A DNA stretch of 64,000 nucleotides from Alphaproteobacteria bacterium. Lineage in GTDB: Bacteria > Pseudomonadota > Alphaproteobacteria > Rs-D84. The notes beneath the pieces were generated by a model that made no database searches, had not been told where the DNA came from, and saw only the letters and a program-made list of their open reading frames with translations. This document shows positions 16,002-16,201 of this stretch, piece after piece (position 1 is the first letter of the stretch; every line of letters begins with the position of its first letter). The position numbers were made by a program, and so were the translations under genes. The stretch is taken from contig WRCA01000001.1 of NCBI GenBank assembly GCA_009784275.1, positions 129,783 to 193,782 of the forward strand. Direction: 5' to 3'.

Positions 16002-16086
16002 GGGCATATGGCGGAATTGGCAGACGCGCTGGATTTAGGTTCCAGTGGAGAAATCCGTGGGGGTTCAAGTCCCTCTATGCCCACCA
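16002..16086 (+). tRNA. tRNA-Leu (anticodon UAG), long variable arm
   Basis: GGGCATATGGCGGAATTGGCAGACGCGCTGGATTTAGGTTCCAG...GGGTTCAAGTCCCTCTATGCCCACCA. 7 bp acceptor, CCA encoded. Confidence 0.85.
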
Positions 16087-16201
16087 CGAATTTAGTGTAT
16101 GTGAACCTTGTAACCTCACAATGCGCGTCAACCGCTCGCGGCTTACACCGCCGCTCTCGGGACGCTTATACGCTCGGTTTCAAGTCCCTCTATGCCCACC
16201 A
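16087..16201 (+). repeat. tRNA-Leu tail module: about 90 nt conserved spacer ending in an imperfect 26 nt copy of the tRNA 3' end (GGTTTCAAGTCCCTCTATGCCCACCA)
   Basis: The 3' 26 nt have one mismatch against 16061-16086. The spacer is homologous to 47145-47232. Confidence 0.75.

Follow-up and report, generated by a model that had tools for sequence, protein, structure and literature searches.

Introduction

Repeats at tRNA genes and small hairpin elements are both known from described systems. Genomic islands catalogued in Islander have their crossover sublocations in the T loop, the anticodon loop or the T/acceptor junction of a tRNA gene; 3760 of them have 3' fragments and 159 have 5' fragments of the target gene, and an island must carry an integrase gene between the tRNA and the fragment and be at least 2 kb long (PMC4383910). 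Bacterial MITEs (miniature transposable elements with inverted repeats) and palindromic intergenic repeats, among them Correia/NEMIS, RPE, ERIC and REP/BIME, are small (below about 200-400 bp) and have no transposase gene; MITEs are further defined by several dispersed copies in a genome, a long stem-loop fold, inverted repeats at their very ends, a flanking target-site duplication and a related autonomous insertion sequence or transposase (PMC3184786). Casposons produce target duplications of 14 bp, and up to 35 bp, by staggered cuts, and in Methanosarcina they insert in the 3' part of tRNA-Leu (PMC4779613). In this report, we analyse a 64,000-nt stretch of the genome of an uncultured alphaproteobacterium (contig WRCA01000001.1, positions 129,783 to 193,782; hereafter the window), in which the genes for tRNA-Leu(UAG) and tRNA-Leu(UAA) are each followed by a short insert, M1 and M2 respectively, and then by a second copy of the gene's own 3' end. 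The 'spacer' between the two tRNA ends is a complete member of a dispersed, MITE/REP-like family of non-coding hairpin repeats that is not in Rfam, and a third copy, M3, is present in the same genome without a tRNA.

The two loci resemble Islander-type attachment (att) sites with a T-loop sublocation, such as that of P4 at leuX, in having an intact tRNA, a displaced 3' copy in the same orientation and tRNA-Leu as the target, and 5' fragments upstream of the tRNA, as found at one of them, occur in a minority of islands (PMC4383910). They differ from islands in that the copies are separated by only 92 and 91 nt of non-coding DNA without an integrase, far short of the island minimum, in that the hairpin family is dispersed and also occurs away from tRNAs, and in that the repeat tracks the target and not the lineage of the element. 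With MITEs the family shares a length of about 100 nt, the lack of coding content, dispersed copies, a long imperfect stem-loop and, at M1 and M2, flanking direct repeats (PMC3184786); the inserts, which measure 91-92 nt and have about 72 nt in the family core, fall within the MITE size range, and M3 runs into the end of an open reading frame (ORF), as RPE and Correia elements do. Unlike in MITEs, the direct repeat measures 23 nt and not 2-10 nt, the inverted repeat is sub-terminal at its left side, the T loop of a tRNA-Leu gene is the site of two of the three known copies, with the tRNA preserved, and no parent insertion sequence (IS) or transposase is known. Integron attC sites are imperfect hairpins with the consensus ends RYYYAAC (R'') and GTTRRRY (R'); the ends found here are TTGTAAC or TTGCAAC and GTTTCAA or GTTTCGA, so that AAC/GTT and the hairpin are common to both, but the purine/pyrimidine consensus is not. 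REP/BIME units have a palindrome of 20-40 nt with a conserved 5' GT[AG]G and are linked with a RAYT gene, whereas the present core is about 72 nt long and has no GTAG head. REP/BIME units are also abundant, with more than 100 copies (PMC2817692). The resemblance to casposons is confined to the long 23-nt repeat of M1 and M2 at the 3' part of tRNA-Leu. Casposons span several kb, encode a casposase and PolB and have clear terminal inverted repeats, and those described so far from bacteria are intergenic (PMC4779613), whereas the inserts lack any coding capacity and the window genes scanned included no Cas1.

Results and Discussion

Two tRNA-Leu genes are followed by exact copies of their own 3' ends

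Six tRNA genes of the window are called by both ARAGORN and Rfam, and two of them are followed by a module made of an insert and a distal copy of the tRNA end. The features of the two loci are as follows.

16002..16086, + strand: tRNA-Leu(UAG), intact, CCA encoded (ARAGORN; Rfam RF00005, 56.5 bits)
16064..16086, + strand: proximal 23-nt repeat of tRNA-Leu(UAG), T54-A76 of the tRNA (exact-match scan, repeat search)
16087..16178, + strand: insert M1, 92 nt (alignment and folds; covariance-model matches of 139.7 and 96.5 bits)
16179..16201, + strand: distal 23-nt repeat of tRNA-Leu(UAG), 23/23 identical to the tRNA end, adjoining the downstream flank
47058..47144, + strand: tRNA-Leu(UAA), intact, last in a Leu(CAG)-Ala(CGC)-Leu(UAA) cluster (ARAGORN; Rfam)
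47122..47144, + strand: proximal 23-nt repeat of tRNA-Leu(UAA) (exact-match scan)
47145..47235, + strand: insert M2, 91 nt, homologous to M1, with a hairpin core at about 47167-47238
47236..47258, + strand: distal 23-nt repeat of tRNA-Leu(UAA), 23/23 identical to its own tRNA end

The sequence TTCAAGTCCCTCTATGCCCACCA is present at both 16064-16086 and 16179-16201, an exact repeat of 23 nt that runs from T54, the first base of the T loop, to A76 of the encoded CCA, and TTCGAGTCCCACCAAGACCACCA is repeated just as exactly over 23 nt at 47122-47144 and 47236-47258; identity begins at T54 at both loci. The 3' ends of the two tRNAs differ from each other at 8 of 23 positions, and each distal copy agrees with its local tRNA at all 23. 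Each 19-mer of the repeat occurs exactly twice in the 64-kb window at up to three mismatches, where 0.01 occurrences are expected, so that neither tRNA end has a further copy there. An earlier note on this DNA, made by a model from the letters alone, had reported that the 26-mer at 16061-16086 is found again at 16176-16201 with a single G-to-T change; this is correct, the exact part being 23 nt. The arrangements around M1 and M2 are base-for-base identical in contigs from ENA ERZ27257304, ENA ERZ27257295 and Logan SRR10512951. Because the same arrangement is found in independently assembled contigs of other samples, and because the repeats are much shorter than assembler k-mers, it is not an assembly artefact, and the repetition of the tRNA ends is real and reproducible. 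A 95-aa ORF (window 15921-16208, + strand; contig L134, 2288-2575) extends over the region upstream of tRNA-Leu(UAG), the tRNA itself and M1, and is annotated as a gene in an ENA assembly; it is almost certainly spurious.

The inserts are complete members of a hairpin repeat family

The earlier note had also called the two spacers homologous, in agreement with our alignment, in which M1 and M2 are identical at 60 of 89 positions (67%) with a global score of 30, whereas shuffles score -11.6 +/- 4.8 and 3' flanks taken from other tRNAs score -12 to -29. Neither insert (91-92 nt) contains an ORF, and both fold into one common long imperfect hairpin. The parts of M1 and the position of the third copy are these.

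16087-16108, + strand: left extension of M1
about 16109-16181, + strand: family-conserved hairpin core of M1, ending in TCGGTTTC, the final 3 nt of which overlap the repeat
16107-16115 and 16176-16184, + strand: closing helix of M1, CTTG.AACC paired with GGTT.CAAG
window-equivalent about 64413-64526 (L202 1773-1886, - strand; L201 2288-2401, - strand): M3, on the strand opposite to M1 and M2, about 410 nt past the right end of the window

In the outer helix, CCTTGnAACC, located about 20 nt inside the insert, pairs with GGTT.CRAG, a strand composed of the final bases of the insert and the first bases of the distal T-loop copy; the AACC/GGTT closing helix reaches the right end of M1 and M2, but on the left it begins about 20 nt within the insert. 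The extreme insert ends have only CGA in common, and the conserved arms of the family read YGAAYTT... / ...TACGCTCGGT, also written YGAAYTT... / ...TACGCTCGGTTTC. The inner helix has changed in a compensatory manner, with GCGUC/GACGC in M1 corresponding to GCACA/UGUGC in M2 and CCG/CGG to CUGC/GCAG, and M1 has an apical hairpin with a loop of 7 nt on a stem of 5 bp. The consensus fold of a structure-aware alignment of M1 and M2 has a z-score of -4.6 on the plus (tRNA) strand and -5.2 on the minus strand, and none of 1000 column shuffles matched it. The outer helix contains a U-A pair in M1 and U.G at that place in M2; since the left arm of the element did not co-vary with this difference between the tRNA T loops, the T-loop part of the helix is target sequence. 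Should the hairpin be transcribed along with the tRNA, it would be no more than a stable stem-loop of the 3' trailer.

M3 was recovered as a full-length match (54 bits, E 2.5e-12) to a covariance model built from M1 and M2 only, in the contigs L201 and L202, which had been fetched solely to extend the right end of the window. It belongs to the same genome, because L202 overlaps the window over 1360 nt with 0 mismatches. M3 has the hairpin of M1 and M2 and the conserved right end TCGGTTTC, and the flanks, when checked, showed no tRNA or tRNA fragment adjoining it. It lies between a 79-aa ORF, whose last ~20 codons it encodes, and a 124-aa ORF, antisense to both, whereas M1 and M2 are in the sense orientation of their tRNAs, and this inconsistency of orientation is easier to reconcile with a DNA element than with an RNA that acts in one direction. 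On either side of M3 stands a copy of GAAAGAA, which doubles as the ribosome-binding site of the next gene. Core identities are 78% for M1-M3 and 72% for both M1-M2 and M2-M3; the tRNA-linked copies are therefore not each other's closest relatives, which argues that the tRNA end was not inherited with the element. Across the three copies, 88% of the pair cells hold standard pairs, compared with 23-42% when the partners are slid, and there are three double-compensatory pairs, a number that 12 of 500 shuffles attain. In all three copies, the fold of the reverse strand is better than that of the strand transcribed together with the tRNA.

These results change the picture that the earlier note had drawn of an integrated element whose body is missing: the 92-nt insert is itself a complete member of a repeat family, represented by the tRNA-free M3 in the same genome. 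The GGTTTC variant that it described as common to both displaced copies is not a mutated tRNA base; the variant is the conserved right end TCGGTTTC of the family, which abuts or overlaps the 23-nt repeat and is also present in M3. The note's view that the copy comes from the element side applies to GGT, perhaps to GGTTTC, which is element sequence, and not to the remaining 20-23 nt, which differ between the loci and match the local tRNA. The repeat is probably not carried by the element, because its sequence tracks the local tRNA while the element body tracks its own family tree.

Searches for additional members and for known relatives of the family were negative within their scopes. The three-sequence model R2, run unfiltered, matched no additional copy in the window or in about 100 kb of relatives' loci; Rfam, applied to the modules at gathering thresholds and at E <= 5, reported tRNAs only and no family match for the hairpin; and blastn of the spacers against annotated plasmids and phages gave no match. 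Pattern scans of genome contigs with CCTTGNAACCN{50,80}CGGTTTCRAGTCC, of metagenome contigs with TACGCTCGGTTTCNAGTCC and of viral contigs with three patterns returned only chance matches, in coding sequence or otherwise. The genome and metagenome patterns demanded the junction with the tRNA T loop, and the collections lack the window's own locus and this lineage's contigs, so that these scans say little about close relatives.

The modules are not tRNA-like

A possible truncated tRNA-like transcript, as the earlier note had proposed for the tail, is not borne out by its sequence: the T-stem 5' strand reads TCGGT instead of GGGGG or GTGGG, so that a T-arm cannot form, and neither the tRNA model (RF00005) nor the tRNA-like RNAs of clan CL00001 match the modules at E <= 5. 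The same finding bears on the idea that each module is a decayed tandem tRNA-Leu pseudogene, a second tRNA whose 5' two-thirds have degenerated. In favour of this are a 3' end that is that of a tRNA throughout and the short apical hairpin of M1 with its 7-nt loop, but a module measures 115 nt and the tRNAs 85-87 nt, M3, although homologous, shows no tRNA features, and each spacer is homologous to the other spacer and not to its own tRNA; we regard a pseudogene as extremely improbable. A plain tandem duplication was also rejected, there being no second copy of the spacer past the distal repeat. The modules look like the footprint of a mobile-DNA insertion and not like a new kind of tRNA-like RNA.

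Orthologous tRNA-Leu genes are bare in related lineages

Orthologous tRNA-Leu genes without a module were found in four metagenome lineages. tRNA-Leu(UAG) is bare in L004/L005, whose SIMPL protein is 74% identical to that of the window, and in L006/L007 (63%); in these contigs it begins 7-10 nt past the SIMPL stop codon and is directly followed by other sequence. The tRNA-Leu(UAA) gene is bare in L156 (L13 protein 84% identical), which has the same Leu-Ala-Leu cluster, and in L199 (likewise 84%), where a nearly identical tRNA-Leu(UAA) stands alone. The flank past the distal copy in the window (AAAAATTCCCC) resembles the flank past the bare tRNA in L199 (GTTATTCCCC). The closest relatives (SIMPL 85-89%, L13 96%) are represented by contigs that are too short or too rearranged to tell. 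Since the orthologous genes are bare in relatives, the modules have been inserted between the tRNA and what used to be its flank, the alternative being several losses in the relatives through recombination of the repeats. The proposal in the earlier note that the direct repeat is an insertion footprint is thus supported, both by the bare orthologues and by the apparent ancestral flank that the distal copy adjoins. Absence from relatives was what that note had named as the sign of a lineage-specific duplication only, and absence is what we found; yet two homologous modules and a third copy exceed a local duplication.

The comparison with relatives also bears on a functional RNA, in which the hairpin and a single-stranded copy of the acceptor 3' strand and CCA would be kept by selection in the tRNA trailer, competing for the 5' acceptor strand, acting as a decoy for enzymes or toxins that recognize tRNA 3' ends, or serving as a processing barrier or a substitute terminator. 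Such a role would account for distal copies that are preserved at 23/23 despite 33% divergence of the inserts, for the conserved sequence blocks and for the co-varying hairpin; in whole-transcript folds the tRNA 5' end is predicted to be able to pair with the distal copy, and a canonical terminator, which follows the bare tRNA-Leu(UAG) in L006, is absent at the window locus. Set against this, the module is missing from all relatives examined and so is not conserved tRNA-Leu biology, M3 has no tRNA end and is antisense to its neighbours, the better-folding strand is the reverse one in each copy, and the T-arm cannot form nor does any Rfam family, of tRNA or other RNA, match. We consider a trailer function distinctly unlikely. 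An antisense RNA, as the better-folding reverse strand might suggest, was rejected as well: M1 has no convincing promoter, and a terminator stands between the convergent gene and M2.

A proposed insertion into the T loop with target duplication

We favour, at about even odds (a probability of roughly 0.5), the reading that a MITE/REP-like hairpin element inserted into tRNA-Leu T loops and that the 23-nt repeat is a target duplication. Two copies of the element would have entered tRNA-Leu genes at T54, and the 23 bases from T54 to CCA would then stand on both sides of the insert, such that an entire, functional tRNA persists upstream and the copy on the downstream side is left without a function. 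The two strands would have been cut about 23 bp apart, starting at TTC, by an enzyme supplied in trans, and the duplicated target would be the repeat. The repeat family, its conserved hairpin, the exact boundaries and the inserted state relative to other lineages are established by the data above, and the enzyme and its staggered cut are inferred.

Several observations weigh against this model. No transposase, casposase or integrase was detected by Pfam among the window genes scanned, only three copies of the family are known, all in about 64.5 kb, and no excised form of the element was seen. Among the three samples there was no strain with an empty site, and look-ups with window proteins gave identical copies only. 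A 23-bp target duplication is far longer than is usual for bacterial MITEs, and the inverted repeat is not strictly terminal, as on the left it begins ~20 nt inside M1 and M2. A duplication of a constant 23 bp is not established, as the flanking repeat of M3 is 8 nt only (TTTCTTTC), a length equalled by 10% of shuffles, the corresponding 23-mers agree at 14 of 23 positions, and only the part that doubles as a ribosome-binding site has been kept. Finally, the inserts are 33% divergent yet both distal copies are perfect, a combination with P ~3e-4 under equal neutral decay; to explain it, either the insertions must be recent and stem from sources that had already diverged, or something must preserve the distal copy.

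A more specialized form of T-loop insertion was also weighed, in which a miniature element is built specifically for tRNA T loops or the distal tRNA end is a working decoy or alternative acceptor strand. In this form CCTTGnAACC would be complementary to the universal T-loop sequence GGTTCRAG and the GGTTTC end would mimic a T-arm, while a Cas1/casposase-like ruler or a new recombinase would measure a fixed 23-bp stagger from T54 to CCA, so that any tRNA entered would survive. We hold this to be decidedly improbable.

The footprint also recalls attL/attR scars, as the earlier note had pointed out; the geometry partly supports its integrase idea, but there was no body to go missing, the insert being a complete small repeat element. 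According to such a scenario, related elements with a tyrosine integrase, specific for tRNA-Leu(UAG) and tRNA-Leu(UAA), recombined in the T loop, brought their own 3' end and displaced the original. Only a minimal att region would be left of them, as the remnant of a deletion or as a non-autonomous mini-element that an integrase mobilizes in trans. The arrangement has textbook att geometry, with an intact tDNA and a cognate 3' fragment downstream in the same orientation that is identical from the T loop to the gene end. tRNA-Leu is a synteny breakpoint between lineages, and the upstream region of tRNA-Leu(UAG) holds 5' fragments, as does contig L157, that break near the anticodon loop, which is, like the T loop, an Islander crossover subsite (PMC4383910). 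The upstream region has the following position.

15875..16001, + strand: 'head' upstream of tRNA-Leu(UAG), with 5' fragments of that tRNA (repeat search, exact-match scan, relatives)

Within the head, CGGGCATATGGCG lies at 15875-15887, 6 nt past the SIMPL stop, and its tRNA part, from 15876, occupies the position at which the tRNA starts in relatives (7-10 nt past the stop). A D-arm copy, GCGAAATTGGCAGACGCGC, lies at 15961-15979 and extends to about 15990, into the anticodon stem, and GCAGACGCG occurs three times in the head. No part of the head, including the filler of ~70 nt between the fragments, matches the hairpin family (models R1 and R2).

Against att scars stand the lack of an integrase and an 'island' of 92 nt where Islander demands 2 kb. 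Two independent deletions would need to have the same endpoints and to leave a co-varying hairpin, and a double-stranded circle of 115 bp is implausible as a recombination substrate. With M3 lacking a tRNA end and M1 closer to M3 than to M2, the tRNA core would have been gained or lost repeatedly. Scans of viral contigs with the 23-mers as attP cores gave no att-like partial sites: the M1 core had 37 matches, all 37 of them in complete phage tRNA-Leu genes, and the M2 core had 0. We therefore regard att scars as unlikely. The 37 IMG/VR contigs concerned (L159-L195) each carry a complete tRNA-Leu, mostly in phage tRNA clusters, whose last 23 nt equal those of the window's tRNA-Leu(UAG). One circular element spreading to both tRNAs was rejected, as a single crossover would produce hybrid cores and the core is purely of the local type at each locus. 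IS91/Helitron, IS200/IS605, integron attC and CRISPR-like mechanisms were likewise set aside, since they leave no long repeat or have consensus ends that do not fit.

The stuttered partial D-arm copies of the head are typical of slippage, and they lend some weight to a local accident, whereby the element landed in the 3' flank, after which slippage or template switching between GGGTTC and GGTTTC placed a copy of the tRNA end behind it; the resemblance of the right end TCGGTTTC to T-arm sequence would have favoured such a switch. An event with two switches that ends exactly at A76 would, however, be needed independently at two loci, and a simple unequal exchange would have duplicated the insert too, of which no second copy was found. 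A local accident is very improbable in our estimation.

If insertion with target duplication is the correct account, the modules represent a previously uncatalogued family of small repeats in an uncultured alphaproteobacterial lineage, and a very small non-coding element that can enter essential tRNA genes and yet leave them functional, with a footprint resembling the att site of an integrase. Programs that search for islands or call genes can be misled by such footprints, as in the public assembly in which the 95-aa ORF was called over the tRNA and its module. Should the 23-nt repeat be a true target duplication, it would indicate that the enzyme of insertion is an unusual one. If a module is only a scar, it is ordinary mobile-DNA debris.

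Other features of the two loci and their relatives

The window is a housekeeping stretch, and the neighbouring genes scanned with Pfam are ordinary. The tRNA-Leu(UAG) gene marks a synteny breakpoint (window 10819-16086 versus L006 3001-6738): a block of an ABC transporter, tRNA-Ala(UGC) and S21 lies upstream of the M23-MTase-SIMPL-tRNA-Leu block in the window, and downstream of the tRNA and inverted in L006, and the genes downstream of tRNA-Leu(UAG) differ in every lineage. In L008 (SIMPL 89%), the SIMPL stop is followed at 2116-2232 by 117 nt of a different, hairpin-rich sequence (ccccctcgctttagcgaagggg; gacggggtag...ctaccccgtc), with no tRNA between the stop and the contig end, so that this spot varies among close lineages.

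At the tRNA-Leu(UAA) locus, contig L157 (positions 1-264; Logan SRR34068998; L13 protein as in L156) starts with the 5' half of a tRNA-Leu(UAA), which stops in the region of the anticodon loop (..GAGGACTTAAAATC) and is followed by 148 nt of AT-rich DNA and then by a complete tRNA-Leu(UAA) that represents another allele, its anticodon and T stems showing compensatory changes. This duplication of a 5' fragment could be an integration event or an effect of the assembly graph. In the window, a 14-nt inverted repeat (GGGGATTTTTTTGG at 46851-46864 and CCAAAAAATTCCCC at 47256-47269, 93% complementary) brackets the tRNA cluster and M2, and could be a processing stem or due to chance. Two ORFs on the minus strand flank the cluster, of 221 aa (47355-48020) and 822 aa (44321-46789), and neither has a Pfam domain; the 221-aa ORF, next to M2, had no homologue in a search of 5.8 billion proteins, and identical copies of it are present on two contigs. 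L156 has an 835-aa ORF at the position of the 822-aa ORF of the window, the likeness being one of position only.

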